Of a stretch of DNA of 64,000 nt, positions 2 to 45,956 are shown piece by piece. The first letter of the stretch is position 1. Every line of letters begins with the position of its first letter. The notes beneath the pieces are model-generated. The model was not told the origin of the DNA. It did no database searches and saw only the letters and a list, made by a program, of their open reading frames with translations. The translations under genes and the position numbers were made by a program. The stretch is from Ostreococcus lucimarinus (Eukaryota), in assembly GCA_000092065.1 (NCBI GenBank), contig CP000583.1; one strand, given 5' to 3'.

Positions 2-244
2 GTCTGTCGACGTCGTTTACAAGTCTCCGGCTGGGTCCAAGCCGGCGTCCAAGCCGGCGGTCCCGTGTACACGGGCATGTTCGACTGTTTCCGTCGTACC
101 GTCGCCGAGGAGGGCGTCTCCGCCCTGTTCCACGGTCTCAGCGCCAACTACATCAAAATCATGCCCTCGATCGCCATCGCCTTCGTCGTCTACGATCAAC
201 TCAAGATCATTCTCAAGCCGGAAATCAAAATCTCCGCGGGCTGA
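2..244 (+). CDS. 3' terminal fragment (last ~80 codons) of a mitochondrial carrier family (SLC25) protein; the CDS enters from the left edge and ends at stop TGA 242-244
   Basis: Frame-2 translation ...GPVYTGMFDCFRRTVAEEGVSALFHGLSANYIKIMPSIAIAFVVYDQLKIILKPEIKISAG* matches the last repeat of mitochondrial carrier proteins. It is absent from the ORF track because it has no start in the window. Confidence 0.65.
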   Translation, partial: VCRRRLQVSGWVQAGVQAGGPVYTGMFDCFRRTVAEEGVSALFHGLSANYIKIMPSIAIAFVVYDQLKIILKPEIKISAG

Positions 245-4724: not shown

Positions 4725-5519
4725 TTAAGCGGTGGTGGAAGTGAAATCAGCGAACGAGCGCTCGCGCATCTCGGGACATCCCGTGGGGGCGATTAAACCG
4801 CGCTCCAACGCGTTGGCCTTGACGCCGCGCGTGTACGCGACGGGGAATTTGTAGCCGAGACCGTCGTGGAATTGGTGGTAAACTTCGGCGGGGTAAAACG
4901 GTAGCTTGGCGCTGTCGTAAATCCACACGCTGTTGATGACGTCCGTTTCCGTGGGCTTGGCCTTGGGCGCCATGACGTTGCCCGAACCCGGAACGAGCTT
5001 CATGCCGTGCACGTTTGCCTCCTCGATCACCTTGAACAACGGCGAATCGATCCCACCCGGAAGCGCGATGCAGTTTCTATACCCTGGACCTGCGTCTTGA
5101 GGGTCCACGCGCTGCATTCCGAGTCCGGGAATCTTTTGGAAGCTCGCGAAATACGCGTCCGCGAGCGGCTTTAACTCGCTCGCGTTCGCCGCGTCCACGG
5201 CGACGACTTCGGCGTGACCCAATCGTTCGTACACCGTGTCCGCCGCGCCGTAATAGTAGCACACCGGTTTATCACCCTCTCTGACGCTCGCACCACCGCC
5301 GTATCCCACGACGGAGGTGATCGTGTCGTCCGTTCGCCCCAGCGAGAGCTCGGCTTCGTAAAACGTGTGTTGTCGTCCCCAAAAGCACCCGTTCCCAAAG
5401 TAGATATCGCGCGCGCGAAGCGATTCCGCCGTCGGTCCCGCGGCGGGCGCCGCGAGCGCGCCCTTCGGCGCCGTTCCGACGAGCGCGCCGAGCGCGAGCG
5501 CGCACGTAGACGCGAGCAT
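4725..5519 (-). CDS. msrA: Peptide methionine sulfoxide reductase MsrA with N-terminal signal/targeting peptide; the ORF is open further upstream to 5831
   Basis: Active-site motif GCFWG (YFGNGCFWGRQHTF), GHAEVV motif and C-terminal YHQ are all MsrA hallmarks. Start chosen at MLASTCALALGALVG (signal-like). The longer in-frame extension includes HRHRHHHKRR. Confidence 0.85.
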   Translation of the reverse strand: MLASTCALALGALVGTAPKGALAAPAAGPTAESLRARDIYFGNGCFWGRQHTFYEAELSLGRTDDTITSVVGYGGGASVREGDKPVCYYYGAADTVYERLGHAEVVAVDAANASELKPLADAYFASFQKIPGLGMQRVDPQDAGPGYRNCIALPGGIDSPLFKVIEEANVHGMKLVPGSGNVMAPKAKPTETDVINSVWIYDSAKLPFYPAEVYHQFHDGLGYKFPVAYTRGVKANALERGLIAPTGCPEMRERSFADFTSTTA

Positions 5520-5912
5520 CGACCGACGCTTGTGATGATGACGATGACGGTGCGCGTCGGCATCTTCATCGGTCGATGGCGTCGCCGACGCGACCGCGAC
5601 GACGCGACGGGCGACGGTTCTACCGCAAACGTTATCCGAGCGTTGGTTTCGCGCGGCGCGCGGCGCGCGCGGCGCGAGACGCGTCGTCGTCGCCGCCGCG
5701 AACATGTCGTTCGCCGGCTGGAGAGGTGCGTTGTGAAGGCCGAGGCGCGACCGCGACGAGCGAAAACGCGCGAGAGCGGGAAGTTCGATGCGATGGACGC
5801 TCTGATGAAACGTAAAATTCGTATTTTTCAACGCGTGCCTCTTAGACTTTTGCGGACGCGCGCGAAGCGATGCGCGACGACGCCGTCGTCGTCGTCGTCG
5901 TCGTCGTCGCGT

Positions 5913-19743: not shown

Positions 19744-19899
19744 CGCGGCGTCGAATGCGGGTTCGAACTTTCAAGCCGCGGGGACGCGCGCGGAACTTTG
19801 CGACGCGCGCGACGCGCCTTCGCGAGCGCGCGCGAGAGAGAACGTCCGTGAGTATGATTAGCATCGCACGGCGCGAACGCGCGCGTCGTTGAGCGCACG

Positions 19900-22800
19900 A
19901 TGACGCGTGGAGAGCGCCGCGCGCGCGGCAACGCTGGGACAACGGCCGGACGACGCGCGCGCGGTGCTCGAGCGCTGTGCGCGATCGCGCTCGCGCGCGC
20001 GCTCGTGGGTGACGTTTCGCGCTACTTTGTGCTCGCGCAGACGGTCAGCACGGGAGCGCCGCTGGTCGGGGCGACGAACGGCGCCGCGCAGGCGGTGCTG
20101 GACTTCGCGAGCGCGCCGGGCGGACGGTGCTCGCCGAACGACGACTCGAACACGATGGCGTGCGAAAAGCTCGAACCGCCGTCGACGAAGAATTACGCGT
20201 CGTTTGACTTTTATGTGAACGACGTCAACGGCGCGCGGTGCGATAAGTGTGGGAGGGAGTGTAGTTTGGACGGCGCCGCGTGGGCGTATTGCGGCGCGAC
20301 GCCGGTGTGGTACTTTGGGTTGTCGTACGGGCAACACCAGTTCAAGGTGCGAGGACTCGGTGGAGATAACGTCGCGGGGACGGCCGTGGTGTATGACTGG
20401 ATGAATGAAGAACCGTTGAAGGTGGAGTGGGATTCGGGATATTCCACGCCTTCGTCGTACTTGAATTCAAACGCTGTGTTGACGTTTCATTTGGCGTCGT
20501 CGCGGCCGAGCTCAAATTACGTGCAGTTTGAATACAGTACGACGAATGATTACATCAAGACGTTCACGCGATTATCGATTGGGGTGACATCGGTGAGCGT
20601 GACACCGAGTTATGGGTCGAATAGGTTTACATTCAGGGCGATATCCATAGAGTCGTTCACGGGGAAATCGCTCACCGAGTCTTCGGTGAACGAGATTGAG
20701 CTTTTGTACGTCGCCGATAACGTCAACCCCTCGTTGGCCTTCGTGAGTGGACTCGCAAACGGAGGAACGACGCAGAAAGGATCGATGGAGTACGTAATTA
20801 GCGCTTTAGACGTGGACCCAACGAATGGATACGAATCTGGATTGGCAACGCTCGACGTGCAGCTCTTTCGGCTGGATAACGGGGCAACGTCGCCGTCGCC
20901 GTTGCGCGCATGGACGACGTATCACACATTTAGTGGCGCTCCTGTGGACAAAAACGTAACGGTGACTTTAACAAACATCGCGTCGCTGGCGGACACGACG
21001 TATAAATTAGAGATTAGAGCTACAGATCTTGCAGGAAACGTCGCAACAACGATTGGTAGGACTTTCGTCGTGCAGTTGTCAAGCTTGGTGAACGTTCCCG
21101 ATTCGTCTGGTCTGAGTGCGTCGACCACAGAGCGGCTACAGACGACGTCTGGGGCGATTAAACTAGCTTCACAGCCATCAGATGGATCTCTCGTACCCGT
21201 TGCGTACGAGGTGAGCGCAATCGTCGGCGGCACTCTTGTGCTTGAATCAGCGACGAGCGTGGCTTTGGCCAACAACACGCTTGTCACGGCATCAGATGCG
21301 CTCAATGGTTTCAGGTTCACGCCTACGGCTGGATTTTATACGAACGATCAGTACGCGAGTACGTTTGGTTTTGATTTGAAGCCTTCCACGAGCACGTCAG
21401 ACTTGTCTCAAGTCGTCAATTTACCTGCGCATTCCACCATCACCGTCACAGCGACGAATGATCCACCCGTAGTGAGTGTCACAGCGCACTACAAGTTGAC
21501 CCCAATACACGTGTCGGACGGTGCGAACATTGGAACCGTGGTACGTGATATTTTAGATGCTAACGTCATCGATTATGATTACCTCTCGTCGAACAACACT
21601 GTTCCTTACGGCTTCGCCGTTGTGGGCGCCGACGAGACGCGAGGCGCGTGGCAGTTTTCAACGAATGGTGGTTCTTCATGGACAAATTTCAACACTGCTG
21701 GTGCGTTGAGTACGACGAATGCATTAATGCTCACGGCGACGACAAACGACCGAGTGCGATTTGTACCCACGGCAACGACTCTCCAGGATCAGTTCATCGC
21801 TTCCTTTGCGTTTAAAGGTTGGGATGGCACGACGAGCGAAGCGACAGGAGCCACTGGCATTGACATCACAACGAGTGGACATACGGCAACGACTGGATCG
21901 ATTAGCGTTTCAACCGTCACTGCCACCATTCTTGTGCGTGGTCTTTCTCATAGTTTATTCGAGCAAGCTGCACAAACGACAACAGCGAGCTCACGACAAG
22001 CGTACAGCGCAGCACTTTACAGTTGCCCGCCGACGCACCGGCGAAGTATTCGTATCCCCGTCGCTGCAACGTCGAGCACGTCCTCTTCTTGTGCGGGCAC
22101 CACGTCAACCGCTCAGCCTAAGATAAAGGCTTCGTCAGCTCTTACGGTCTCACCTCCTTGGACGATCGAGGCTTGGGTGCGTCGCGATGCTTGGCTCAGC
22201 GAACAGACGTTATTTCAGAATCCAAGCGATTTGAGTGCAGTCATGCTCGAAATGAGCGACGCAAGCGGGAAGGTTGGTGTCGTGCCGCCGTCGGGTGTGA
22301 GCGGTGGTACATTTAACTATGCAGCTCCACTGGGGACTTGGGTGCACTTGGCCTTCGTCATGTACGAGAACAATCATCCTTCCGCTTACAGCGCGCCTGG
22401 GGCGAATTTGCGCCTCATCGTAAACGGCGTCTTTCACAGCGAAATCACAAACGTCGGTTTCGCCATGCCACATGGCATCATCGGTGGTTCTGGTCTCGCT
22501 GGATTCTCGATCGATGAGGTGCGATTTTGGTCCATCGCCCGATCGACGGAAGATATTTACACCAACATGAATCGTTTTGTCGCGGGCACGGAGACTGGGC
22601 TCGTATCGTACGTTCCCTTTGACGCGGGATGCGGTAGCACCGTGGTCGACAGAGACAGCGGAAGCTCGACCACTTGGACGCTCGTATCTCACGAGTGGAT
22701 TGATGCGCGCATATTTTCCTGCGCTTCGTTGACCTCCGTATCGCCTGCAAGCGTGAATTTGTACAACACTTCAAATTTGCAGCTCACTGGCGAGCGCTTT

Positions 22801-25602
22801 ACTCGTCCGGCTTTGGGTTGGGGATCGAGCTCTGTCGCATCATTTGACGGCACCAACGCGGTTTGTATTTTCGGTTCATCGACTATTGGAAATATGACTA
22901 CAGTGGCCACAGTTGTAAACGACGGTTTGGTACAGTGTGCGCCTCCGGACTCGACGAATGGCATCGCTGTGGTAACGCCAGTGTTTTGCGACTATTCTCT
23001 TGGTTGTTGCACGAGTGAGACCCCTATTGATTATTATCTCGCAGCGAGTCGACCTTACGACTCGAATTACGTTTCTTACGGTGTGAACACACCACCGATG
23101 TATGATCAACCGGCGCTCAGGTACAGTGTTGGAGAAATCACATCAGTGATGCCTTCGACGATAGACTGGGCTCTCGGCGCCGTTGTGACTCTGGCTGGTT
23201 ATGGATTTTCGACGCCGATGGATACGAATTTTGGTGCTCAACCCCCAAAGTGCGTGTTTCGAGCTCGACTTCCGTCGAAGACTGCTTGGGCTACCTTTCA
23301 CGTTACAGATGCGGCCGTGCTGTCGGATAGTGTGGCCAAGTGTGAGTATCCTGGTTCTGCTGTGACTGCTTCGCTTGAAGCGCGATATAGCGTCGAGGTA
23401 GCGTTGGCATACTTCTACGACCACGTGGATTCGATCCATCTCATATCAAACGGATGGATCACAGTAGTAGTTTCAAGTTATACTTTGTACACCGGACTCG
23501 ACGAGCCGCTCACGGAGATTTCGGACTTAGGAGGCAGTGTGGTTTCGATCACCGCGATATACACCAAATCTGACACGGCGGGGGAATTTGCAGATCACAC
23601 CTCTGGACGGGTATCGTCTCTGGACGTGGCGTGTGCTTTCGGTACAGTGCACCCCGTTTCAGCTCGTCACAACGCATCTGAGACCTTTGAGTGCGTCGCT
23701 CCAGCGGCACCGAGGGCTGTGCCCACAGATGTCCCGCTTTCAGTGACTTTGTTTGCGTCGTCGATGTTCACTTCGTATTCGCGTCTCGAGCTTCTCACTC
23801 AGACCGGAGACATTTCTTACGTCGCGCAACCGGTGGTTTCAGCAATATGGCCTCTGAAAATCTTTTCAGTGGCGACGAATGCGCCTAATTTTCAGGTCAT
23901 TGGGTCCAACTTCCCGAGTTCGAGCACGACGTGTCAGCTCAACAACAAGTATTACTCGGCGACGTGGTCGAGTGCGAGTCGAGTGCAATGCAACACCGTC
24001 ACGAGCGGTGGAGCATCACCTGGTTTCCAAGCAGTTTACGTGGGTAACAATTTACTCAAGATGGACGAAGCTTTCTCTCCAGGTGACGCTCACGTGATGA
24101 TACGAGATGATGTTTACGTGGGCGCCGTCGTATCCGGCGGAGCGGCAGGACCTCTGTACGGAGGGTGGGCGCTCACCGTCTCGGGATCCGGATTCCTTCC
24201 TGGGGACGGGTGTTCGTTACACGCCTATCCAGGAGAGCTCAATGGAAGTGGTGATGATCCCACAGCTGGAGAGTTTGTAAGCAGCGCTTTGATGAGGTGT
24301 CTCGCTCCGAAAGTGGAAGAAAATTCGGTGAATTGGGATTTAACGTCAGACGGCGGCGGTTGGGCGACGCACCTGGTCGCGCGTCTCGCCATTCAGACGT
24401 TTTCTGATGCACTCGATAATAATGCAGTGGTCATGAAAGTAGTAGACGGTATCAACAACGTTAGTGCGGTGGCAAATTTGTATGCTACCATGACGTCTGC
24501 TGAGCTCATATCTACCGATCCCGTGTACTTGAATGTCGATGGCGGCACCTCCGTCGCCATCATTGCAAAGAATGGAACTGCTTCTCTTTTGAGTACTTCG
24601 TGTCGATTTGGGACTATCCAAGTCTTGGCAGATTGGGGTTGGTCGAACACTTCTTCGACGACGCGAATGCGATGCGTTTCACCCTCTTTCGGCGCGTACA
24701 GCACAAACGGAATTCGACTATCAGTGTCTCAGGGCGACCCTGGACATCACGGTGAAACAGTCGTTTCGGCCGCCTTGACAATGATGAGGCCGTTAGATGA
24801 TCTAACTTCAACGCTCAACAATGGTTTGAACATCGTTGGGCCATTCTCGTCGGTGCCAAGCGCACAGTTGGCGTTGTACGAGTGCTACATAAAGGGCGAC
24901 CGGAACTTCGTGACGGGGTCGTTCGAGTTGGCATCCTCACAGAACGAGGGCAGTTGTTCCCTGAGACAGGCTTCCATGAATCTCGTATCACGTTCAGATT
25001 TCGCGTTTTACACTACCGCGATTGCGATAAGGGGTGGTGAAGATGTTGCGTTACCCATCACGCTTCAATACATCGCGCCGCCGATTGTGTCGTCCGTCAC
25101 GGTGAGCGCCCGCCCGCCGCCTTACGGTTATCGACCGGCGTTTGCTACCAGTAATTGCACGACACTCGAAGATGCACCATTGCTGACGTACGATAACGCT
25201 CACGGTGTGTACGAAGGTCGACCCCAGACACCGTACGAAGTGGAAAAATTTGCCTTGTCCTCTCTGCCAATTTTCGGCGGCGCTTGGTGGCACGTCTCGA
25301 ACGCCATCGGCACGCCCGTGAATGTTTACGGTCGATTCTTTCGATCGCCACAAGACGGAGGAGACATTCGTATCTTATTTCAGCACGCCGGTGAGATCGC
25401 TTCGACCTCTGCGCACTTCGTTTCGTCAGCACTCGTGCGCGTAGAGGTGCCCATCGACGTCGACGCCGAGCACGAAACCGAGGTTCGCGCCTCCGTGGAC
25501 GACGGCGCATCTTGGTCCAGCGAGCGCTTCACGTTCATGATTCCAGAATTAGATTACGTCAACCGTGACTTGCAAACGGTCGAGCAAGGATGTGCGGCGT
25601 AA
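19900..25602 (+). CDS. Giant (1900 aa) single-exon secreted/cell-surface multidomain protein containing a LamG/concanavalin-A-like (pentraxin-like) domain and multiple beta-sandwich (IPT/Ig-like) repeats
   Basis: 5.7 kb uninterrupted ORF. Signal-like N-terminus (ALCAIALARALVG). LamG-like block ...TLFQNPSDLSAVMLEMSDASGKVGVVPP...WVHLAFVMYENNHPSAYSAPGANLRLIVNGVFHSEITNV...GFSIDEVRFWSIARSTEDIY. Many Thr/Ser/Val-rich beta-strand segments. GC visibly lower than neighbouring genes. Confidence 0.75.
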   Translation: MTRGERRARGNAGTTAGRRARGARALCAIALARALVGDVSRYFVLAQTVSTGAPLVGATNGAAQAVLDFASAPGGRCSPNDDSNTMACEKLEPPSTKNYASFDFYVNDVNGARCDKCGRECSLDGAAWAYCGATPVWYFGLSYGQHQFKVRGLGGDNVAGTAVVYDWMNEEPLKVEWDSGYSTPSSYLNSNAVLTFHLASSRPSSNYVQFEYSTTNDYIKTFTRLSIGVTSVSVTPSYGSNRFTFRAISIESFTGKSLTESSVNEIELLYVADNVNPSLAFVSGLANGGTTQKGSMEYVISALDVDPTNGYESGLATLDVQLFRLDNGATSPSPLRAWTTYHTFSGAPVDKNVTVTLTNIASLADTTYKLEIRATDLAGNVATTIGRTFVVQLSSLVNVPDSSGLSASTTERLQTTSGAIKLASQPSDGSLVPVAYEVSAIVGGTLVLESATSVALANNTLVTASDALNGFRFTPTAGFYTNDQYASTFGFDLKPSTSTSDLSQVVNLPAHSTITVTATNDPPVVSVTAHYKLTPIHVSDGANIGTVVRDILDANVIDYDYLSSNNTVPYGFAVVGADETRGAWQFSTNGGSSWTNFNTAGALSTTNALMLTATTNDRVRFVPTATTLQDQFIASFAFKGWDGTTSEATGATGIDITTSGHTATTGSISVSTVTATILVRGLSHSLFEQAAQTTTASSRQAYSAALYSCPPTHRRSIRIPVAATSSTSSSCAGTTSTAQPKIKASSALTVSPPWTIEAWVRRDAWLSEQTLFQNPSDLSAVMLEMSDASGKVGVVPPSGVSGGTFNYAAPLGTWVHLAFVMYENNHPSAYSAPGANLRLIVNGVFHSEITNVGFAMPHGIIGGSGLAGFSIDEVRFWSIARSTEDIYTNMNRFVAGTETGLVSYVPFDAGCGSTVVDRDSGSSTTWTLVSHEWIDARIFSCASLTSVSPASVNLYNTSNLQLTGERFTRPALGWGSSSVASFDGTNAVCIFGSSTIGNMTTVATVVNDGLVQCAPPDSTNGIAVVTPVFCDYSLGCCTSETPIDYYLAASRPYDSNYVSYGVNTPPMYDQPALRYSVGEITSVMPSTIDWALGAVVTLAGYGFSTPMDTNFGAQPPKCVFRARLPSKTAWATFHVTDAAVLSDSVAKCEYPGSAVTASLEARYSVEVALAYFYDHVDSIHLISNGWITVVVSSYTLYTGLDEPLTEISDLGGSVVSITAIYTKSDTAGEFADHTSGRVSSLDVACAFGTVHPVSARHNASETFECVAPAAPRAVPTDVPLSVTLFASSMFTSYSRLELLTQTGDISYVAQPVVSAIWPLKIFSVATNAPNFQVIGSNFPSSSTTCQLNNKYYSATWSSASRVQCNTVTSGGASPGFQAVYVGNNLLKMDEAFSPGDAHVMIRDDVYVGAVVSGGAAGPLYGGWALTVSGSGFLPGDGCSLHAYPGELNGSGDDPTAGEFVSSALMRCLAPKVEENSVNWDLTSDGGGWATHLVARLAIQTFSDALDNNAVVMKVVDGINNVSAVANLYATMTSAELISTDPVYLNVDGGTSVAIIAKNGTASLLSTSCRFGTIQVLADWGWSNTSSTTRMRCVSPSFGAYSTNGIRLSVSQGDPGHHGETVVSAALTMMRPLDDLTSTLNNGLNIVGPFSSVPSAQLALYECYIKGDRNFVTGSFELASSQNEGSCSLRQASMNLVSRSDFAFYTTAIAIRGGEDVALPITLQYIAPPIVSSVTVSARPPPYGYRPAFATSNCTTLEDAPLLTYDNAHGVYEGRPQTPYEVEKFALSSLPIFGGAWWHVSNAIGTPVNVYGRFFRSPQDGGDIRILFQHAGEIASTSAHFVSSALVRVEVPIDVDAEHETEVRASVDDGASWSSERFTFMIPELDYVNRDLQTVEQGCAA

Positions 25603-27520: not shown

Positions 27521-28003
27521 CCCGTCGTCCTCGCGAAAAAGCGTGGGGGGGTGGAAAAAGGCGCGCGCGGTCGGTCGGCGTCCGAATGTCCGAATGTCCG
27601 CCGAGCCGTCCGTGTGTGCGTCGCGTCTCGCGTTCGCGCGACGCGACGCCCGCGGCGCGCGACCGCGCGCGTCGGTCTTTTGTCGTCGCGCGACCGCACG
27701 AGTCATCATGGTGCGTTCGCGGCGAAGCGCGCGATCGATCGCGCGCGATGGCGCGGACGCGCGACCGCGCGCGCGACCGCGCGGCGTCGGTCGCGGCGCG
27801 GCGTCGCGCGGAAGCGCGGAAGCGCGATGATGGAATAGGGTTTTCGTGCGCGCGGTGGCCGACGACGACGACGACGACGACGGCGCCGGCGACGCGCGCG
27901 AGCGGTCGGCGATGGACGATACGGACGGTGGTGGATGTTCGCGTCGCGCATCGCGCGTCGATGGGGCGCGAACGGCGATGGAGGTGATGGAATCGAAGGA
28001 TGA

Positions 28004-28567
28004 ATGACTGACGACGGATCGATCTTCGCGGTGCAGGCTGAGAAGACTGAGAACCCCATGCGGGCCATTCGCATTCACAAGCTCGTGATCAACATTTGCG
28101 TTGGGGAGAGCGGTGATCGTCTCACGAAGGCGGCGAAGGTGTTGGAATCGATCACTTCTCAACAACCGATCTTCTCCAAGGCGCGATACACCGTGCGTAC
28201 GTTCGGTATTCGACGTAACGAAAAAATTTCCTGCCACGTCGCCGTCGGTAACCGCGACAGGGCCATGACGATTTTGGAGAACGCGCTCAAGGTGAAGGAA
28301 TTCGAGTTGCTCAAGAAGAACTTTAGTGCCACGGGTAACTTTGGCTTCGGTATCTCCGAGCACATTGATCTCGGTATCAAGTACGACCCGTCCACGGGTA
28401 TTTACGGGATGGATTTCTACGTGGTGTTGGAGCGTCCGGGCTACCGCGTCGCCCGTCGCCGTAAGCAGCAAAAGAAGATCGGCAAGCAGCACAAGCTCAC
28501 CAAGAAGGATGCGATGTTGTGGTTCCAACAAACCTTCGAAGGCGTCATTTTGAACAAGGCGTACTAA
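28004..28567 (+). CDS. RPL11: 60S ribosomal protein L11 (uL5), single exon
   Basis: [153 protein letters not shown]... is near-identical to eukaryotic RPL11. Confidence 0.95.
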
Positions 28568-31657: not shown

Positions 31658-31967
31658 GGCGATGCCCTTGAAGTTGACTACGCCGACCGACGGCGAGGCG
31701 ATCGAGCGCGGCGAAGTGAAGTCACGGCGCGATGGCGATTCGAGCGCATCGCCCGGGCGTCGGCGCGCGCGCCGGGCGACGCGCTCGCGAGGGACGCGCC
31801 GAGGGGACGATCGACGCGCGATGCGGACGTGGAACTCGCGAGACGAAGCGCTCGGGATGTGGTCTGAGTTTTGTTGATTCGAAAATCGTTTTTATTAAAA
31901 TGCAATCTTCTAAGTTGGTAGAGAGACGAGTTGGTAGAGAGACGACGCGAGAGCGACGTCACGCACG

Positions 31968-32612
31968 GTGAACCGCTTAGTAGAAGCCGAAGCCCTTGGC
32001 CGCGTTGGTGAGGACGTTGGAGTGAACCGGGTCCGCAACGTGGGATTGCCAGTTGGCGATCGGGCCTTCTTGGGTGGCGAGCGCTTGGAAGATGCAGCCC
32101 AACCACGCGAACATGGACAAGCGGCAGTGCTTGAGCTCCTTGATCTTGAGTTCTTCAAGGTCGCCAGACTCGGCGAGGCCGAGCGGGTCGAAGCGTCCAC
32201 CCGGGTTGACGTCACCGACGGTGAGGCCATCATCGAACGGAGAGTCGGAGATACCGGTACGGTACGCTTCCGCGGCGCCGACGAGAACGATCTCGATGAT
32301 GAGAACGTTCCAGAAGGACGGGTAGCCAGAGCCTTCCGGCGCGAGCGGGGCGACGGCGCCCGGGAACTTGTCCGCGACGGCGGTGCAGTCATCCGGGGTG
32401 CACAAGGTACCCGCGGTGAACCACGGGATGCCGGTGCCGTTTTCGGCGGCCCACGCACCGGTGACGCCAAGCATCGCCCAGCGGCCGTGGATCACTTCAC
32501 GCTCGGCGTTCTTTTCGTCGCCGAACGGGATGATCGGGGATTCGCCACCGCCCGGGTAGGTACCGAATTCCGGGTAGATGTCAGCCTTGACCGTCGTGGA
32601 GACAGACTTGGC
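31968..32612. repeat. Inverted repeat arm A (LHC exon 2 + 9 nt of 3' flank); the identical partner is 33979..34623
   Basis: Identical translated strings in both orientations in the ORF track (e.g. MIHGRWAMLG..., MNRLVEAEALGRV..., MSATAVQSSGVHK... each occur twice). Direct comparison shows identity through the exon, with divergence ~10 nt past the stop. Confidence 0.85.
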
Positions 32613-33152
32613 CTGCGATCGAACGAAGTTTATATTCTCCAGTCAGTCTCGTCGTCTCGTGATCGCGCACGCCCATCCGTCGTCGTCCGCCGACGCGCCC
32701 GCCGCTCTAAAAAGTCTGTTCCCCCCCCGATCCACGTTTTCACGGTTCACGACTCGTGCCGACCCCCATCCGCGGCGATAAGAGCGAAACCGTATCTCGC
32801 GCGCGGCGTCCCGCCCGATCGCCCGCGTCGCGCGCGCGTCGCCCGCGACCGACGCCTCGACCCCCGACGTCGCGCGACGCGCGCGACACATTTCCAGCAT
32901 CCACCGCGCGCCGTCCCGCGCCCGTCCGCGCGACACCGCCCGCGCGAGGGCGCCGCGCGCGATCGCCCACCGCGATCGATCGCCCGATCGTTCGTTCGTT
33001 CGTTCGACGCGCGCGCGTCGCGTCCCTCGCGCGCGTCGTCGTCCCGCGCGTCGTCGCGCGTCGCGCGAAGGCTAAAAAATACGCACTTGGATCTTGGTCG
33101 CCTTGAAGGCGGCGACGCGGCCGACGAAGGAGGAAGCGAGAAGGGCAGACAT
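31977..33152 (-). CDS. Light-harvesting chlorophyll a/b-binding protein, copy A; 2 exons on minus strand: 33087..33152 (MSALLASSFVGRVAAFKATKIQ) and 31977..32612
   Basis: Exon 2 AKSVSTTVKADIYPEFGTYPGGGESPIIPFGDEKNAEREVIHGRWAMLGVTGAWAAENG...GGRFDPLGLAESGDLEELKIKELKHCRLSMFAWLGCIFQALATQEGPIANWQSHVADPVHSNVLTNAAKGFGFY* has the LHC helix-1 and helix-3 signatures. The 474-nt intron runs GTGCGT...GAGACTGACTGG...CGCAG. Confidence 0.85.
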
Positions 33153-33488
33153 TACGACTGAGTGTGCGTGAATGCCGCGCGCGGCGCGCCACCGGTGGCG
33201 GTCGAGGCGCGCGCGCGGGCGCGGCCTCGCGGCGAACGAGATCTTCCGTGATGGGCGAAATACGGCGTGGAATGCGTGAATATCTCGCGATCGGGGTGTT
33301 TTATGTTTTATGCGTCGCGGCGCGCGCGATCGAGATCGCGATCGACGCGTTCGGGTTCGCGCGTCGCGCGCGATCGATCGTGCGTCGATCGATCGCGCGA
33401 TCGATCGATCGATCGATGGCGCGCGATCGATGGCGCGCGATCTCGCGCGCGCGCGCGAGCGGCATACCTGCACACGCACATTTCTACA
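33153..33488. promoter_or_regulatory. Shared divergent promoter / 5' UTR region of the head-to-head LHC gene pair, containing a (CGAT)n/(CGCGATCGAT)n microsatellite at about 33340..33430
   Basis: The region between the two divergently oriented ATGs is centred on CGCGCGATCGATCGTGCGTCGATCGATCGCGCGATCGATCGATCGATCGATGGCGCGCGATCGATGGCGCGCGATC. The two 5' UTRs are similar but not identical. Confidence 0.5.
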
Positions 33489-34614
33489 ATGTCTGCCCTT
33501 CTCGCTTCCTCCTTCGTCGGCCGCGTCGCCGCCTTCAAGGCGACCAAGATCCAAGTGCGTATTTTTTAGCCTTCGCGCGACGCGCGACGACGCGCGGGAC
33601 GACGACGCGCGCGAGGGACGCGATCGCATCGCGCGCCATCGATCGACGGCGTGAGATACGCGACATCGCGCGCGCGGCGCGCATCGCGTCGTCGCGACGC
33701 GGGACGTGCGACGCCGCGAAGGGCGTCGCGGGAAGCGATGTCGATGATTATTTGTGATCGCGACGCGACGCGCGTCGGCGTCGCGACGCGTCGCGACGGG
33801 CGAGCGGGCGCTCGATCGCCGCGGCGATAGGATAACCGCGATACGGATATTTTCTATCTGTTTGTTTGACTGGACGAAGCGCGGGCGCGGGGCGGAGGAC
33901 GCGGGTGATTGGATCGATCGTTCGAGCGAAGAGAGGAGACTGACGAAAGAAACGCGATGTGTTTTACGAAATGAACAGGCCAAGTCTGTCTCCACGACGG
34001 TCAAGGCTGACATCTACCCGGAATTCGGTACCTACCCGGGCGGTGGCGAATCCCCGATCATCCCGTTCGGCGACGAAAAGAACGCCGAGCGTGAAGTGAT
34101 CCACGGCCGCTGGGCGATGCTTGGCGTCACCGGTGCGTGGGCCGCCGAAAACGGCACCGGCATCCCGTGGTTCACCGCGGGTACCTTGTGCACCCCGGAT
34201 GACTGCACCGCCGTCGCGGACAAGTTCCCGGGCGCCGTCGCCCCGCTCGCGCCGGAAGGCTCTGGCTACCCGTCCTTCTGGAACGTTCTCATCATCGAGA
34301 TCGTTCTCGTCGGCGCCGCGGAAGCGTACCGTACCGGTATCTCCGACTCTCCGTTCGATGATGGCCTCACCGTCGGTGACGTCAACCCGGGTGGACGCTT
34401 CGACCCGCTCGGCCTCGCCGAGTCTGGCGACCTTGAAGAACTCAAGATCAAGGAGCTCAAGCACTGCCGCTTGTCCATGTTCGCGTGGTTGGGCTGCATC
34501 TTCCAAGCGCTCGCCACCCAAGAAGGCCCGATCGCCAACTGGCAATCCCACGTTGCGGACCCGGTTCACTCCAACGTCCTCACCAACGCGGCCAAGGGCT
34601 TCGGCTTCTACTAA
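33489..34614 (+). CDS. Light-harvesting chlorophyll a/b-binding protein, copy B (identical protein to copy A); exons 33489..33554 and 33979..34614
   Basis: Same exon sequences as copy A in inverted orientation. The 424-nt intron runs GTGCGT...GGAGACTGACGAAAG...GAACAG, and only its first ~65 nt match the copy A intron. Confidence 0.85.
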
Positions 34615-34623
34615 GCGGTTCAC
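33979..34623. repeat. Inverted repeat arm B (partner of 31968..32612)
   Basis: See arm A. A second short inverted pair covers exon 1 plus the first 65 intron nt (33022..33152 vs 33489..33619). Confidence 0.85.
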
Positions 34624-34914
34624 CGCCTTGGTAGCTTCGTCATAGGGTAGCTTGATCGGCGGCCGTCGACTTCGCGTCTACGGTCACCTCCAAGATTTCT
34701 CTGACAGCGCTGGGAATTCCCGACTGCTTTTGGGGCTTTGTCTCTTCAATAACATTCGTTTTAATGATGCATCTCTCGATGTTTGATTACTCTTCGCCTC
34801 CGCGTCGCCGTCGCCGCGCTCTGGATAGCCCGCAGACGCGCGTCCCGGCATCTTGCCCCACACACGCGCGCGCGCGTTCCCTTCGCCCCCGTGGCCGGAT
34901 CGAACGCGAAGAAC

Positions 34915-39946: not shown

Positions 39947-40885
39947 TCACGACCCCTCCGACGTCGCCGCCCTTTGTTTATCATCGCACCGCGTCACGAA
40001 ATCATGAACCTCGTCGGCAAACTTTTTCGGTTCTTCGAGGTACAACCAATGCCCACAGTTTTCGAAAATCTTCAACTCCGAATCGGGAATCATCTCAGCC
40101 ACCGCTTTGATGCCATCTATGGGAAATATTTTGGTTTCACGTCCCGCCAGGACGAGCGCCGGGATGGTCATGTGTCGACACTCGCTTCGCCAGTCTTGGT
40201 GCGTGTGGTCGTACATCAGCTCGCACAACGCCTCGGGACAGCACTCGAGCGTCTCGCTCTTCACCATGGCGAGCACGTCGGGATCAACGACACTGAGATC
40301 GTGAAAGCAAGCCTCGGCGTTACCATCCGCGAACGTAGACATATCTCTTCTCACAGCCGCCGCCAACGCCTCGTAACTCGCCGCGTCGTAACAACCCAAA
40401 CTCCCCAGCTCCCAATCCGGGCGTCTATTCTGCAACGGGGCCTGATCCACGAGCACCGCGCCGATGACGCTCACCTCGGTCGCATCGCTCCCCCCTCCGA
40501 CGCGCCATCGCGCGCCGCACAACTGTAAGAGCGACCAAACGACCGCGCATCCCATCGACGCGCCGACGAGCACGAACCCGCTCGGCGACAGTCTCGCCGC
40601 CGCCTGCTCCAGGACCTCCCGCAGGTCCATCGCCAGCCGCGCGACGGTGTGGCCGCGTCCCGGACGGTCGCTCCCGCCGTGCCCTCGAAGATCGAACGCG
40701 ATCGTCGCGGGAAAGTCGTCGCGCGCCGCGCGCATCGCCGGCGACCAGTACGCCGCCGTCCCGCTCCAACCGTGGACGAGGACGACGACGGGGCGATCGC
40801 GCGCGGGCGTAGCGCCGCCGACGACGGCGCGGAGGCGAACGCGGCCGCCGTCGACGGGGTCCAGGTCGAGCGCGGTCCACGGCAT
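39947..40885 (-). CDS. Alpha/beta-hydrolase fold protein (ORF extends to 40924 with an earlier Met)
   Basis: HGW oxyanion-region motif VVVLVHGWSGTAAYW and nucleophile elbow GASMGCAV (GxSxG). About 310 aa. Confidence 0.75.
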   Translation of the reverse strand: MPWTALDLDPVDGGRVRLRAVVGGATPARDRPVVVLVHGWSGTAAYWSPAMRAARDDFPATIAFDLRGHGGSDRPGRGHTVARLAMDLREVLEQAAARLSPSGFVLVGASMGCAVVWSLLQLCGARWRVGGGSDATEVSVIGAVLVDQAPLQNRRPDWELGSLGCYDAASYEALAAAVRRDMSTFADGNAEACFHDLSVVDPDVLAMVKSETLECCPEALCELMYDHTHQDWRSECRHMTIPALVLAGRETKIFPIDGIKAVAEMIPDSELKIFENCGHWLYLEEPKKFADEVHDFVTRCDDKQRAATSEGS

Positions 40886-40943
40886 CGCGCGTCGACGAGT
40901 GTTTGGGAGCGAGGTCGATTGCAAAGGGCGGCGTCGCTCGGTT

Positions 40944-43112
40944 CTAAAGACGAGATTTAATTTTGGTGTCCAACGGACCCTGAGCGAGGGTGCGACCCTG
41001 AATGGCGCAGTTCTCTAAGTAAGGACACGGTTGGTACAGACCGCCGTACTTGGTGGACCAAGCGCGGAGCTTGGCGGCGATCACGGCGGGGCCGACGGAG
41101 TCGCCCCAGTGGACGACGCCGCCTCGAAAGGCAGGGAAGCCCATGCCTAAGATTGCCGCGGTGTCGATATCGCCAGCCTTGACGACGATGCCTTCGGAAA
41201 GAACTCTGCACGCTTCGTTGACGACCGGGAAAAAGATCATCTCAGCGATCTCTTGCGGACTCAAGCCCGCCGGAATGGGCGAACCGTCGAGCGGAAGTTT
41301 GGACTGCGCTCGGGACGCGGCGATGAGCATCTCGACACCCTCGGAATCAGGCGTGGCCCGGCGCTTATTGTCGTACTTGTAAAATCCAGCACCGGACTTC
41401 TCGCCCAATCTTTTGTTCGCGAGCAACGATGGGATGAGGGGCGAGCGGTAGACTCGATCGGGGAAATCGTCGATGAAGTTCTGCCCGACGTGAACGCCGA
41501 CATCGTGACCGACCAAATCACCCAAACGGAACGGACCCATGGGCATTCCAAACATCATTATCGCACGATCGATGGCGTACGGATCGCACCCAATATCCAC
41601 GAGCACCGTCGCGCTCATGGTGTACGGAAAGAAGATACGGTTGACGGCGAATCCGGTGCAGTTTCCCACGACGACAGGCGTCTTCTTAATTTGTTTACTC
41701 AAGCCCAAGGTGTCCACCAAAATCTGCGCCGGAGTCGCGTCGGTACGAATAATTTCGAACAGCTGCATGACATGAGCAGGTGAAAAGAAATGAGCACCCA
41801 CGATGCGCTCTGGGTTCTTCATTTTGGCGGCGATTTTTGTAATGTCGATGGTACTCGTGTTCGTGCTCAAGATGCAATCAGGCTTGCAAATCCTCTCCAA
41901 CTCACAGAAGATCTTTTGCTTGAGAGGTAAGTTTTCAATGACAGCCTCGATGACCATATCACACTGACGGAAATCTTGATCTGTGAGTGTAGGCTTGACG
42001 AGCGACATCAGCTGGCGCGCCTTGTCTTCAGTCATCCTGCCTTTACGAACCATGCTCGTCAAGTTTGATTGAATGCGACCGACGCCCGCGTCCAAAAACT
42101 CTTGCTTGATCTCTTTCAACACGACTTGAATTCCAGCGAGCAAGCACGCCGTGGCGATTCCACTCCCCATCAAACCGCCTCCGACGACGCCGACTGACTT
42201 CATCGGTCGAGGCTTAAGGCCGACGTCCGTGATTCCCGGAACTACGTTCGTCGCGCGCTGAGCGAAGAAGAAGTGAACCAAACCTTTCGCGGCAGGCGAT
42301 GATACAGCCTTTTTAAAGTTTTCTGCCTCGCGCTTCAGTCCCTCTTCAGGGCCTTGGGCGAGTCCGACCGAGATGGCATCGACGCAAAGCGCCACGTGCG
42401 GCATCACTGACTGCACTCGCTTGGCCTTCTTGCTCGCCTCCTTGAGAATCATCTCCGTAGACTTGGGATCTGGTAGTTTGTCTTTACGATACATCGAAAG
42501 CTCCCGCTTCACGGAGCCACTCGCGATCGCCTTCGCCAACGCCGACGCCTCGGCGACGATTCTTGACGGGTCCGCAATTTTGTCAACCAATCCAAGTTTC
42601 AGCGCCTCCTCCGCCTTGATCGACTTGCTCTTCAGCATCATCTCCAGGGACTTCTCCAAGCCCACCAACCGCGGCAGGCGTTGAGTGCCACCAAACCCAG
42701 GAATCACTCCCAACTGAAGCTCAGGCAACCCCAACTGCGCCCTCGGCGTCGCCACGCGCGCGTTGCACGACATCGCCACCTCCAATCCCCCTCCTAGAGC
42801 CAAGTTTTCGATCGCCGCCACGCACGGCTTACTTCCACCCTCCACGTATCGGCACAGAATCGCGTTAAAATCGCCCACGTCGTTCGACGGCTTCCCCTGG
42901 GTCGACTTTCTCAATTGCGTAATGTCGAAACCGCCGCTAAACTTTCCGCCCGCCCCGTGGATGACGATCGCGCGCACGTTCGAGTTTGCCTGCGCGTCCT
43001 TTACCGCGCGCTCGAGTCCCTCGAGTACCGGCACCGCCAGCGCGTTCACCGGGGGGTTATTCAGCTCGATCACCGCCACGCCGTCGTCGATTTTCGTCGT
43101 CACCGGGGACAT
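40944..43112 (-). CDS. Peroxisomal fatty-acid beta-oxidation multifunctional protein (enoyl-CoA hydratase/isomerase + 3-hydroxyacyl-CoA dehydrogenase), C-terminal PTS1 -SRL
   Basis: N-terminal crotonase fold (VAVIELNNPPVNAL...AIVIHGAGGKFSGGFDI) and central 3HCDH NAD-binding GVVGGGLMGSGIA. The 722-aa ORF ends ...KIKSRL*. Confidence 0.95.
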   Translation of the reverse strand: MSPVTTKIDDGVAVIELNNPPVNALAVPVLEGLERAVKDAQANSNVRAIVIHGAGGKFSGGFDITQLRKSTQGKPSNDVGDFNAILCRYVEGGSKPCVAAIENLALGGGLEVAMSCNARVATPRAQLGLPELQLGVIPGFGGTQRLPRLVGLEKSLEMMLKSKSIKAEEALKLGLVDKIADPSRIVAEASALAKAIASGSVKRELSMYRKDKLPDPKSTEMILKEASKKAKRVQSVMPHVALCVDAISVGLAQGPEEGLKREAENFKKAVSSPAAKGLVHFFFAQRATNVVPGITDVGLKPRPMKSVGVVGGGLMGSGIATACLLAGIQVVLKEIKQEFLDAGVGRIQSNLTSMVRKGRMTEDKARQLMSLVKPTLTDQDFRQCDMVIEAVIENLPLKQKIFCELERICKPDCILSTNTSTIDITKIAAKMKNPERIVGAHFFSPAHVMQLFEIIRTDATPAQILVDTLGLSKQIKKTPVVVGNCTGFAVNRIFFPYTMSATVLVDIGCDPYAIDRAIMMFGMPMGPFRLGDLVGHDVGVHVGQNFIDDFPDRVYRSPLIPSLLANKRLGEKSGAGFYKYDNKRRATPDSEGVEMLIAASRAQSKLPLDGSPIPAGLSPQEIAEMIFFPVVNEACRVLSEGIVVKAGDIDTAAILGMGFPAFRGGVVHWGDSVGPAVIAAKLRAWSTKYGGLYQPCPYLENCAIQGRTLAQGPLDTKIKSRL

Positions 43113-43447
43113 AATTCCAGGTTTCCGATTCGGTACGGATTATCGTCGACGCCGATCGCGCGCGGGCGCGTTCGAGGTCGCGCGTCGGTGTGAAGGCGCG
43201 AAAGGCGGTCACACTCGCGATCGGTCGTCGTCTGCGCGTCGCGAGGCGTCGAACGTCGTCGAGTGGCGGTGCTTCGACGGACGGCGACAGTTACGCAGTC
43301 ACGGCGTCGGCGACGCGACTGGCGACTGGAGCGACGGAACCGCGAGCGACGGAATGAGGGTAACAGCCTCGCGAACGGCGATATAATTTGAATTGAAACG
43401 GCGACGATTCGTCACGGGGCGATCGCGAATGAACTCTGAGGACGGAA

Positions 43448-45870
43448 TCACACGGCGAACGCGACCTTGGTCGCCGAAGCTGGCGCGGCGTCGGTCTGGT
43501 TGGGGTCCAACTCGGAATTCTTCTTTTTCAGCGCCGAGACGAGGTTCTTGTCGGAGAAAGACTGCATCGCTCGAGAATTATTTTGAACGGCTTCCACGGC
43601 GTATCGATCGCCGTCGATGAGACGGCGATCGAGGGCACGTCTCACGTAGAGCGTGACGCCGGAGACGAGTATCAGGCAGAGGGACACAATGGGGGAGACG
43701 TATCGCCACACTGCGACAAGAATCTCGATGAAGTCGATCGTTTCCTTGATTTCATCGTAAAACGCCTCGTCCATGTCGTACTCGAGGCTGGTCCAGGAGA
43801 TTGGAACGAGGGCTTCGTCACCGCTCGAGGCGCCGGACCAGAGCGTGGTGTAGAAAGTATCCGTCGGGTCAATTTTGAAGTTTTGTTGGATCGGAACTCG
43901 CATGCCCACGGTGTTACCGCTGCGCTCGTAAATCATGATCTCGATATCATGTATCGTGGCGTTCGGGGCGAACGGAGATGAAGAAGAGGTCGGATCGATG
44001 TACCCGCCGAAGACTCGGGGGTCGGCTCGATGACCGTGAGGAAGCGTGTACACACTCGGGATGAGCTCGAACCCGCTCACGTTGAACGTGCCGTGAAATT
44101 CCGTGTTGCGCCCACACGCAGTCTGATCTACTGGACAAGCCAAGAACTCTTCGTGCGCGATAGCGTACGTTTCGACAGAGACCTTGGAATTCTTCTTGAC
44201 CGTCTTGCCTTGCTGGTGTCGCAGCGTGAGGGAGCGTTTCAAATCTAATCCCATGCCAAAATCTGCCCAGGCAACGACATCAACTGAACTTCCGTGGATC
44301 TTAATAGCGTGATATTGTCCAGAAGCAATTGTTTTGCCTACGACGTTCTCGACATGCGACGTGTGAGGGTACGTGATTGGTCCCGCGGCGCCGTCAGAAC
44401 GGCGCAACACATTCGTCGCGTTCTCGGGCGAGTTCACGCCGGTTGCGATGCGATAGGGCGTAGATCCGTAGACATAAGCCCACGTAGAAGTATCATTCAC
44501 ACTCCACGGCACGTGATCGTCGTCGATCGTCGTCGCGTTGCGAATCTTTGTCACCGATCGAATGAGTCTTCTAGGATCGTTTGCCGCATACTGCGCGGAG
44601 ACGACGGGATCCTCGTATCCAAAAATCCACTCTCGAACGGTGCGTTTGATCAACATTCCGCTAGATTGTGGGCCAAGAGCGGGTCCAAGAGACGCTTGAA
44701 ACGCGTTCGCTCCGTAGGTCGACGAGATATGAGTCAGGTATCCTTTCCAAAGCTGCGCGTGAAGCGCCGAGATCGTAAACGTCGCCGCCAATGTCGTCGT
44801 GTCCATAGTCAGCATACCCACGGCTGTCATGCCCGTGGAATCGCCGACAACGGCCTGATACAGCGCACTCGACGTCGGCGAGCTTATCGCGACGACAGAA
44901 ACGGGCTGAGAAGCCTGAGTGGCGGCCCAAGATGCGTATTCAGGAACAGACGGGAAGCCGGTTAGAAACGCCGCCGGCACGCCCAAGGCAGCGAGTTGGG
45001 TCACCGATAGTCCCCCAAGAGGGCTCGCTGTGAAGATTTGTTCAACTGCAAGCGCCTGTAAAGCGGTAGGCCCTCCAAGAGCCGCCGCGACGAGGTTAGG
45101 AAACGCCGCCCCGAGCGTTGGGTCGTTCGCCATGGCGCCAAAAAGCTGAGTGATACCGCCGACCAACCCCGAGAGCGTTTGCGGGATTGCGGTGTACAGG
45201 ATGTTCGCTTCGCTCCCTGCCGTCTTCACCATGCCGATGTACGCCAAGTTGAAAGACACGATCTATGATGAAGAGTGAGAAGTTATGAAACTAAATGAAG
45301 CGCTCTAGTTAGTATACCTCGTCGTTCATTGAGCATCCGTCGCAAAAGTTTGCAGCGTCCATGTCCGCATAGAGCGTCGACACAAAGGATACTTCCGTGT
45401 CGTCGTTCGAAAAAGTAATATTCTGACGCTTGTTCACAGTGTTCGAAATAACGTACGGACCCACTTCCACGAGTGCCGGGGGATGAGTACCGGCGAGAAC
45501 TTGACTCGGGTTGGTGATGTTCCAGAAATAAATGCTCGCCTTGAGATTATTCTCGCATCTGGTGGTGCTGGTTACCCAGCACTTATCGCCCCGGTCAATC
45601 TTATAATCGGTGATCAAGCTCAGCGCAGGGACGTAGAGATACGCCAAACATAAGCTCGTGCCTAAAAATAACGTCGCACCGACTAAGACAGCCTGCAAAG
45701 TTGGTGTGAGCTCGCGTCGGCTGCGGTGAAGAAACACATGGCAAACTCACGTGACAGAAGAAATTTTTCCTGCTCGACTCCAAGCCACCGTACGTGCTGA
45801 GCACCTTGGTCGGCGCAGCACTCCGTTCATCGACCTCGATCGTGTCTAACGTGTCGTACTGGGTCGACAT
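43448..45870 (-). CDS. CD36 / scavenger receptor class B (LIMP-2) family protein, 3 exons on minus strand: 45751..45870, 45318..45692, 43448..45262
   Basis: Exon 1 MSTQYDTLDTIEVDERSAAPTKVLSTYGGLESSRKNFFCH ends at a GTGAGT donor. Exon 2 AVLVGATLFLGTSLCLAYLYVPALSLI (N-terminal TM) ...ASIYFWNITNPSQVLAGTHPPALVEVGPYVISNTVNKRQNITFSNDDTEVSF... matches CD36 sequence FWIFDVQNPQEV...GPYTY...DNTVSF. Exon 3 carries the large ectodomain and a C-terminal TM (IEILVAVWRYVSPIVSLCLILVSGVTLYV). The introns are short (58 and 55 nt) and AT-rich, unlike the others in the window. Confidence 0.8.
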
Positions 45871-45956
45871 CGCGGCGTGCACTGAGGTTGATATTCTATT
45901 CTTGGCTCGCGACGTCGTCAACAATCGCGTCTTTGTTTTGTTACAAATCATGTTCC

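Follow-up and report, generated by a model that had tools for sequence, protein, structure and literature searches.

Introns of two styles were described in Ostreococcus lucimarinus in 2008 (PMC2483917). The canonical intron of this alga has a GTGCGTG-like donor and carries ACTGAC (extended, GACTGACG) 20-35 nt from the 3' splice site (PMC2483917), and 12.85% of 319 EST-confirmed introns outside chromosome 2 were without ACTGAC (Irimia & Roy 2008, PMC2483917). Short introns with weak signals are on record from the half of chromosome 2 that is low in GC (PMC2483917, PMC2367439, PMC3879977); the small introns of the BOC1 region in Micromonas were delimited as shorter than 75 nt and below 43% GC (PMC3879977), and a range of 40-65 bp was given in PMC2367439. 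On the protein side, SR-B homologues, operationally defined by an ectodomain between one N-terminal and one C-terminal transmembrane helix, have been reported in seven chlorophyte taxa and were inferred to date from the last eukaryotic common ancestor, some of them with expansions at the apex (PMC10715195). The supplement of that study also lists an Ostreococcus tauri CD36 protein, XP_022838591.1 (595 aa), with the architecture 'CD36-TM', the Bathycoccus and Micromonas proteins being TM-CD36-CD36-TM. The presence of a CD36 receptor in a unicellular alga, which the first-pass annotation had regarded as notable in itself, is thus already published.

The locus studied here lies in a window of 64,000 nt from O. 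lucimarinus CCE9901, by which the whole stretch of DNA analysed is meant. Joining three exons of the minus strand (45870-45751, 45692-45318 and 45262-43448) gave a single in-frame protein of 769 aa, and removal of the two introns left one ORF of 2310 nt. The coordinates of the gene and introns given in the first-pass annotation, the intron lengths of 58 and 55 nt and the donors GTGAGT and GTATAC were all reproduced. The features are as follows.

45751..45870, minus strand: exon 1, 40 codons with the ATG at 45870; predicted cytoplasmic N-terminal tail
45693..45750, minus strand: intron 1, 58 nt, phase 0, GTGAGT...TTGCAG, GC 0.55, no CTGAC
45710-45706, minus strand: candidate branch site CTCAC of intron 1, its A 14 nt from the 3' splice site
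45318..45692, minus strand: exon 2, 125 codons; predicted N-terminal transmembrane helix and first part of the CD36 ectodomain
45612-45692, minus strand: predicted N-terminal transmembrane helix, residues 41-67 (hydropathy peak)
45263..45317, minus strand: intron 2, 55 nt, phase 0, GTATAC...CATAG, GC 0.35
intron 2 bases 7-9, minus strand: in-frame TAA
45279-45275, minus strand: candidate branch site CTCAC of intron 2, its A 13 nt from the 3' splice site
43448..45262, minus strand: exon 3, 604 codons and the stop codon (43448-43450); remaining ectodomain, predicted C-terminal transmembrane helix and cytoplasmic tail
43634-43732, minus strand: predicted C-terminal transmembrane helix, residues 676-708 (hydropathy)
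44663..45190, minus strand: insertion of about 175 aa (residues about 190-365) rich in Ala, Leu, Thr, Gly and Ser, which splits the CD36 profile match

The joined protein matched the Pfam CD36 family (PF01130) with 112 bits and E=3.4e-32, the curated cut-off being 26.5 bits, and the match crossed the junction of exons 2 and 3 without interruption. Each of the two longer exons was also recognized by itself, exon 2 over profile positions 48-117 (E=1.4e-12) and exon 3 over positions 142-461 (E=4.5e-15), so that the two ORFs are complementary halves of one CD36 domain. The in-frame join and this match bear out the proposal of one CD36-like gene cut by two short introns, and the profile search of the joined protein that had been suggested placed it in the CD36 family. 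Solved LIMP-2 structures were matched directly, though weakly, over residues 93-146 (E=2.9e-5); a profile search of the solved structures in the PDB, with an alignment of mostly C-terminal sequence as query, returned no match. In a Kyte-Doolittle scan the only hydrophobic segments were at residues 41-67 and 676-708, one on each side of the ectodomain as in the SR-B definition. The AlphaFold2 model of an orthologue (P0002), built from an alignment of 11 sequences, had helices at 39-61 and 668-733, at positions matching the two transmembrane segments; its mean pLDDT was 38.6, with the barrel region below 50, too low to confirm the asymmetric beta-barrel with an internal tunnel that characterizes the family, and helices at pLDDT 70-85 occurred only within the segment of the apex insertion. 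According to this model, the insertion of about 175 aa is a probable helical expansion of the apex. The chain is predicted to begin with a short tail in the cytoplasm and a first transmembrane helix, to continue with an ectodomain of some 610 aa whose helical apex is expanded, and to close with another transmembrane helix followed by the C-terminal tail.

Fifteen other introns were resolved in the window. All of them have a GT(G/A)CG donor and ACTGAC, with lengths of 86-474 nt and the branch A 19-39 nt from the 3' splice site. The CD36 introns begin instead with GTGAGT and GTATAC, and CTGAC is absent from both, the nearest sequence being CTCAC 13-14 nt from the 3' end. The observations of missing ACTGAC and of CTCAC-like candidate branch sites were therefore sound, as was that of two styles coexisting within 64 kb, given the sharp difference between the CD36 introns and the 15 canonical ones. 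In all, 2 of 17 introns in the window are without ACTGAC, which is close to the published 12.85%. The motif is diagnostic only inside resolved introns, since over the whole window it was found 27 times against 23.6 expected. The description of both introns as AT-rich applies to intron 2 (GC 0.35) and fails for intron 1, with a GC of 0.55 against 0.43 in 30 nt of flanking exon on either side. A TACTAAC is indeed present just behind the donor of intron 2, at intron bases 4-10. Because of this position, and because it is not conserved in L010 (94% identical) or L002 (86%), it was rejected as a branch site and is best read as chance.

An alternative intron of 73 nt, from a donor at 45793 (GTACGG) to an acceptor at 45721 (CGCAG), has ends that look canonical. 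It was ruled out because it deletes the conserved YGG...KNFFCH of exon 1 and contradicts the continuous ORF of the orthologue L001 described below. A screen of the window for further short introns, using an ORF-joining test and the GC3 pattern, was noisy, and only CD36 intron 2 and an intron in THOC3 were convincing; more short introns may be present within the window. The MsrA-like gene (4728-5912), in which a missed intron had been suspected, is complete in one ORF.

The same introns were found in relatives. Both lie at identical codon boundaries in at least eight lineages with 59-100% amino-acid identity, and at the same boundaries in all Ostreococcus-like genomic relatives recovered from metagenomes. 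Their lengths vary between 54 and 69 nt for intron 1 and between 52 and 58 nt for intron 2, and every copy either is not a multiple of three or carries an in-frame stop, so that the frame would be broken if it were retained. Intron sequences could not be aligned between lineages; the exons are conserved, and the motif APTKVLSTYGG...KNFFCH of exon 1 is kept with its ATG in all relatives. The donors at the two sites in relatives include GTGCGT, GTACGG, GTACGC, GTACGA, GTACGT and GTGCGC. Canonical branch motifs were also found at these sites, CTGAC in intron 1 of L011, GACTGAC or AACTGAC in intron 2 of L013, L017 and L028, and ACTAAC in intron 2 of L023 and L027. In the Micromonas-like L039 (67% GC) an intron of 245 nt occupies site 1, with GTGCGT, CTGAC at -49 and GCGCAG, which fits the canonical Micromonas pattern of PMC3879977; intron 2 is absent from L039 and from L041. 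One 64%-identical orthologue, L001, has on a contig of 2470 nt an uninterrupted ORF of 776 aa which lacks exactly the two intron segments. The closest genomic relative of L001 is only 73% identical, and the contig could be an intron-less genomic orthologue and not derived from mRNA.

These comparisons run against the suggestion that the two styles indicate a different origin, since every Ostreococcus-like relative has these introns too, and both sites carry canonical signals in some relatives. Judged from sequence, the two CD36 introns do not form a class that has an origin or machinery of its own, because their positions are conserved and their orthologous sites in relatives carry canonical signals. 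They would be old resident introns which shrank while their signals drifted from the species consensus (GTGCGTG / GACTGACG / CGCAG). Intron 1 would be older than the split of the Ostreococcus-like and Micromonas-like lineages, having stayed long, GC-rich and canonical on the Micromonas-like side. Intron 2 is common to all Ostreococcus-like lineages, with the canonical branch motif persisting in some. Removal of both introns would be carried out by a single U2 spliceosome through intron definition, the motifs suggesting a branch point yUnAy (CTCAC) 13-16 nt upstream of the 3' splice site. Recognition of intron 2 may also be helped by the drop in GC, 0.35 against about 0.5. The locus is very probably, as far as sequence comparison can tell, a single, vertically inherited CD36-type gene of O. 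lucimarinus with two old, miniaturised, ordinary introns.

The resemblance to the introns of the outlier chromosome was recognized correctly as far as shortness and weak signals are concerned, and it might be taken further: the CD36 introns could be true members of the BOC1/chromosome-2 class, either moved out together with the gene or marking a small local domain of low GC. With 58 and 55 nt both are below the 75 nt used for Micromonas, and intron 2 with 35% GC is below 43% as well (PMC3879977). GTGAGT agrees with the GTRNGT preference of chromosome 2, neither intron has ACTGAC (PMC2483917), and the gene, with GC 0.555 and GC3 0.66, is at the low end of the window. However, intron 1 with 55% GC exceeds the 43% limit, its orthologue in L039 is long, GC-rich and canonical, and intron 2 carries GACTGAC or ACTAAC with GTACG or GTGCG donors in other lineages. 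The surroundings are also not those of the low-GC outlier region, as the window has 61% GC and consists mostly of intron-less genes, and both intron-less genes and canonical introns (15 in the window) lie in the flanks. The protein order number 1685, compared with published gene counts of 684 for chromosome 1 and 489 for chromosome 2, would place the locus on chromosome 3 and not on chromosome 2. The local compositional domain that had been proposed finds no support, since the GC3 of 0.66 is low yet within one standard deviation of the window mean (0.74, sd 0.09), GC3 is as low or lower in five to six further genes of the window, and gene order with the neighbours is conserved in L002. Of the lower GC that had been noted relative to the neighbours, only the comparison with the upstream one (0.73) stands; the downstream neighbour MFP (0.57) is equal. 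Membership in the BOC1/chromosome-2 class is accordingly unlikely.

In GenBank the locus is split into two proteins, XP_001417043.1 (594 aa), which covers exon 3 only and starts from an internal ATG, and XP_001417044.1 (142 aa, 'partial'), to which exon 2 was assigned; exon 1 is missing from both. If these records were correct, there would be two separate genes and no splicing. Consistent with this, the exact 769-aa product was not found in a collection of 15 billion proteins, and a protein search with the N-terminal 209 aa returned no spliced O. lucimarinus product. Nevertheless, it is very improbable that two genes are present, since the ORFs are complementary halves of one CD36 domain and the 594-aa model is without the N-terminal transmembrane helix which defines the family and is present in the Bathycoccus and Micromonas orthologues. 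In addition, every lineage has kept exon 1, the reading frame and the GT/AG boundaries, whereas the intron interiors diverge freely, and one orthologue has a single continuous ORF. The gene was apparently split in GenBank because predictors tuned to the strong intron consensus missed both weak-signal introns. The O. tauri model of 595 aa is shaped like the 594-aa one, and both public Ostreococcus CD36 models miss the two introns. The listing of the O. tauri protein only as 'CD36-TM' (PMC10715195) follows from the lack of the N-terminal helix in the public Ostreococcus models.

Horizontal acquisition of the gene would account for both the atypical introns and the lower GC, and the GC below the window mean as well as the fact that the CD36 family is best known from animals could be quoted in its favour. 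This reading is hardly tenable: orthologues occur at 35-100% identity across Mamiellales-like contigs, one intron position is common to Ostreococcus-like and Micromonas-like lineages, the SR-B homologues reported in seven chlorophyte taxa were inferred to be as old as the last eukaryotic common ancestor (PMC10715195), and the GC3 is within one standard deviation. The chance that intron 2 (GTATAC...) is of the U12 type and removed by the minor spliceosome is negligible. Its GTAT start resembles the U12 donor GTATCCTT, but in place of a conserved RTATCCTT the donor at this site in relatives is GTACGC, GTACAC, GTACGA, GTATGT, GTACGT or GTGCGC, and the branch motif TCCTTRAC was found in none of the copies.

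The case corrects an annotation and adds neither a new kind of intron nor a foreign gene. In the reference genome of this picoalga, two GenBank entries ought to be combined into a single protein of 769 aa, and the 595-aa model of O. tauri should probably be extended likewise; with the N-terminal transmembrane helix regained, the Ostreococcus proteins would count as bona fide SR-B homologues. One orthologous intron takes the strict canonical or the short weak-signal form depending on the lineage of Mamiellales, and its occurrence in either form argues against separate origins or machineries for the two styles. This has a modest bearing on the splicing of lax introns in the otherwise constrained Ostreococcus genome, a question open since 2008. 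It is conceivable, though rather doubtful, that the pair belongs to an under-annotated population of very small, weak-signal introns on ordinary Ostreococcus chromosomes. If so, the confinement of weak-signal introns to the low-GC outlier region would in part be an artefact of annotation. CD36 intron 1 would then document the passage from a canonical intron, such as the 245-nt Micromonas-like form with GTGCGT and CTGAC, to a mini-intron spliced without strict signals, and the locus would offer a concrete handle on the coexistence of strict and lax introns under one spliceosome.

Compared with the described systems, the CD36 introns share with those of BOC1 and chromosome 2 (PMC3879977, PMC2367439) the short length (40-75 nt), the weak or absent branch motif and GTRNGT-like donors; the AT-richness of that class is matched by intron 2 and not by intron 1. 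Unlike BOC1 introns, they lie outside the low-GC outlier region and have orthologous copies with canonical signals. With the non-consensus minority outside chromosome 2 (PMC2483917) they have in common the GT-AG ends, the lack of ACTGAC and the high-GC, intron-poor setting. That minority was given only as a percentage, whereas the CD36 pair provides two resolved examples, both very short and apparently old, whose counterparts at orthologous positions in relatives carry canonical signals. The canonical introns of Ostreococcus and Micromonas (GTGCGTG ... GACTGACG ... CGCAG) would be of the same GT-AG, U2-type chemistry, but even the shortest of the 15 in the window (86-474 nt) is longer than either CD36 intron, and the candidate branch A of the CD36 introns is 13-14 nt, not 19-39 nt, from the 3' splice site. 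At the protein level, the corrected O. lucimarinus product of 769 aa differs from the public Ostreococcus models (594 and 595 aa) in having the N-terminal helix. It shows the TM-CD36-CD36-TM architecture of the chlorophyte SR-Bs Micromonas commoda XP_002507467.1 and Bathycoccus prasinos XP_007511991.1 (Boohar et al. 2023, PMC10715195), and shares with them an ectodomain of about 610-650 aa and a Pfam match that an insertion interrupts at the position of the apex.

The gene structure was established by joining three minus-strand exons in frame, which gave a protein of 769 aa and agreed with all intron and exon coordinates of the first-pass annotation.

45870-45751, minus strand, CD36 exon 1
45692-45318, minus strand, CD36 exon 2
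45262-43448, minus strand, CD36 exon 3
Between exons 1 and 2, minus strand, intron 1 (58 nt, phase 0, GTGAGT...TTGCAG, GC 0.55)
Between exons 2 and 3, minus strand, intron 2 (55 nt, phase 0, GTATAC...CATAG, GC 0.35)

The joined protein matched the Pfam CD36 profile with 112 bits (E=3.4e-32), confirming a single gene of this family. The first matching stretch, residues 89-190, crossed the exon 2/3 junction at 165/166. When the exons were searched singly, exon 2 matched profile positions 48-117 and exon 3 positions 142-461; the two ORFs are complementary halves of one CD36 domain. Only two hydrophobic helices were found, one at residues 41-67, whose start coincides with that of exon 2, and one at residues 676-708; they give the hairpin topology of the family. 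The Pfam match was split by an insertion of ~175 aa (residues ~190-365) rich in Ala, Leu, Thr, Gly and Ser. In an AlphaFold2 model of an orthologue this insertion was the only confident part, with helices at pLDDT 70-85; the mean pLDDT was 38.6 and the rest was unusable. Lineage-specific helical expansions have been described at the ectodomain apex (PMC10715195).

GenBank splits the gene (43448-45737) into XP_001417043.1 (594 aa), which is exon 3 begun at an ATG within it, and a 'partial' protein of 142 aa, XP_001417044.1, which is the exon-2 ORF; exon 1 is absent from that annotation. The exact 769-aa sequence was not found in a collection of 15 billion proteins. The presence of CD36 in an alga, at first thought notable, had precedents, as homologues from Micromonas commoda (812 aa) and Bathycoccus (875 aa), both given as TM-CD36-CD36-TM, and from O. 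tauri (595 aa, 'CD36-TM' only) were already tabulated (PMC10715195). The O. tauri protein XP_022838591.1 (595 aa) appears to be cut down as the O. lucimarinus model is. The joined protein regains the architecture common to the M. commoda and Bathycoccus homologues. The analysis thus yields a genuine correction of the annotation, together with a good illustration of intron miniaturisation.

Evidence for splicing came from relatives; one metagenome scan yielded 32 loci. A 2470-nt contig from a metagenome, L001, encodes an uninterrupted 776-aa orthologue (64% identity) from which precisely the two putative introns are missing. The size of the contig and its short flanks hint at an mRNA origin, and its nearest genomic relative is only 73% identical in nucleotides. 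Both introns lie at the same codon boundaries in all genomic lineages spanning the region (at least eight, with 59-100% amino-acid identity and 51-62% GC). Their lengths range from 54 to 69 nt for intron 1 and from 52 to 58 nt for intron 2, and their interiors are unalignable between lineages whereas the flanking exons are conserved. Each intron copy has either a length that is not a multiple of three or an in-frame stop.

An 81-kb syntenic contig with 86% identity, L002, keeps the order of the neighbouring genes (MetH, OTU, methyltransferase, CD36, MFP, hydrolase, DUF92). The CD36 gene stands directly upstream of MFP, a multifunctional protein of fatty-acid beta-oxidation (ECH and 3HCDH), and of an alpha/beta hydrolase (39950-45870), an order kept in L002 (9553-15123) and not in a Micromonas-like contig. 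A lipid-handling link with these neighbours is possible, as is coincidence in so compact a genome. The CD36 ATG follows the stop of the upstream gene after a spacer of 86 nt (45871-45956, minus strand), which holds two elements.

45941-45945, minus strand, TGTAA, which we take to be the green-algal polyadenylation signal
~45894-45903, minus strand, AAGAATAGAA motif

Several diverged lineages keep the AAGAATAGAA motif at ~25-35 nt before the ATG; it is possibly an initiator or another core promoter element.

The window has 60.9% GC and ~35 tightly packed genes, most without introns. A 722-aa ORF (40944-43112, minus strand) is identical to XP_001417042.1 of O. lucimarinus CCE9901, number 1685 in proteome order; from this order and the published gene counts of chromosomes 1, 2 and 3 (684, 489 and 589; PMC2367439) we infer that the window lies on chromosome 3. 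The CD36 coding sequence has GC 0.555 and GC3 0.663, below the mean of the remaining window genes (0.74, sd 0.09). The TIG/LamG ORF (0.59), PP2C-kinase (0.63) and DCAF15-like (0.66) genes are equal or lower, and the adjoining MFP has 0.70. The CD36 gene thus ranks low in the window without being an outlier. The local compositional domain once proposed is not supported, and there is no sign of a foreign origin. The TIG/LamG ORF, a single frame of 1914 aa (19858-25599) that has TIG and LamG-like domains and the lowest GC3 in the window, explains a low-GC block at 21-26 kb; compositional heterogeneity between genes is thus common here.

Fifteen other introns in the window were resolved, partly by hand. 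An unnamed gene has three of them and cyclophilin two; the amine oxidase, GYD, THOC3, uL5, DUF92, OTU, AMPK-beta, small TM protein and two LHC genes have one apiece. All 15 have a GTGCG or GTACG donor and ACTGAC (nearly always GACTGAC). They measure 86-474 nt, and 19-39 nt separate the branch A from the 3' splice site. The cyclophilin gene (499-903) has introns at 568-717 and 749-903 around a 31-nt micro-exon (718-748), and in the uL5 (RPL11) gene (27708-28036) the first coding exon is ATG alone, followed by a 326-nt canonical intron. The two LHC (chlorophyll a/b-binding) genes are divergently oriented and form a perfect inverted duplication.

31966-32615 and 33976-34625, 650-nt arms, 100% identical
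33018-33153 and 33488-33623, 136-nt arms, 100% identical

The arms span exons and intron starts, and the intron interiors are unlike (474 vs 424 nt). This pattern resembles gene conversion sparing most of the intron.

Neither CD36 intron contains CTGAC; each has CTCAC, with its A 14 nt (intron 1) or 13 nt (intron 2) from the 3' end. The first-pass annotation described both introns as AT-rich, which held for intron 2 only. The contrast with the other 15 introns is real. A TACTAAC beside the intron 2 donor is missing even from the lineage with 94% identity, and chance is its likeliest explanation.

A separate origin of these introns is not supported by the related lineages. Donors at site 1, the position of intron 1, are GTGAGT, GTGCGT or GTACGG, and L011 has TCTGAC there. 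At site 2, that of intron 2, they are GTACGC, GTACAC, GTACGA, GTATGT, GTACGT or GTGCGC, with GACTGAC or AACTGAC in L013, L017 and L028 and ACTAAC in L023 and L027, 16-19 nt from the 3' end. The contigs L039 and L040 (67% GC), probably Micromonas, carry a more distant orthologue with an intron exactly at site 1 (...RNYIHH|ANLLFF..., against ...KNFFCH|AVLVGA... in O. lucimarinus).

L039 3747-3991, site-1 intron, 245 nt, 76% GC, GTGCGT...CTGAC at -49...GCGCAG
L039 4211-4381, extra canonical intron, 171 nt, GTGCGTG donor, with none there in Ostreococcus

The L039 gene has further interruptions downstream of these. Intron 2 is missing from this orthologue and from a second distant one, L041. Intron 1 is thus older than the genus split, and intron 2 occurs at least throughout the genus. 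These sequences show that one and the same orthologous intron may take either the canonical form or a short, degenerate one, and that the CD36 introns are not a lineage of their own. The ordinary U2 spliceosome would remove both, by intron definition. The A of CTCAC, which lies 13-14 nt before the 3' splice site, is the putative branch point, and the GC drop at intron 2 may help its removal.

The two intron styles were already known. Of the EST-confirmed introns that are not on chromosome 2, 87.15% have ACTGAC, with a GTGCGTG donor (PMC2483917). Chromosome 2 has short introns whose donors are GTRNGT and which have no branch motif in common (PMC2483917, PMC2367439). Two of the 17 introns resolved in the window are without ACTGAC, in agreement with the published minority of 12.85%, and the CD36 introns would belong to it. 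The L039 site-1 intron follows the pattern that PMC3879977 gives as canonical for Micromonas.
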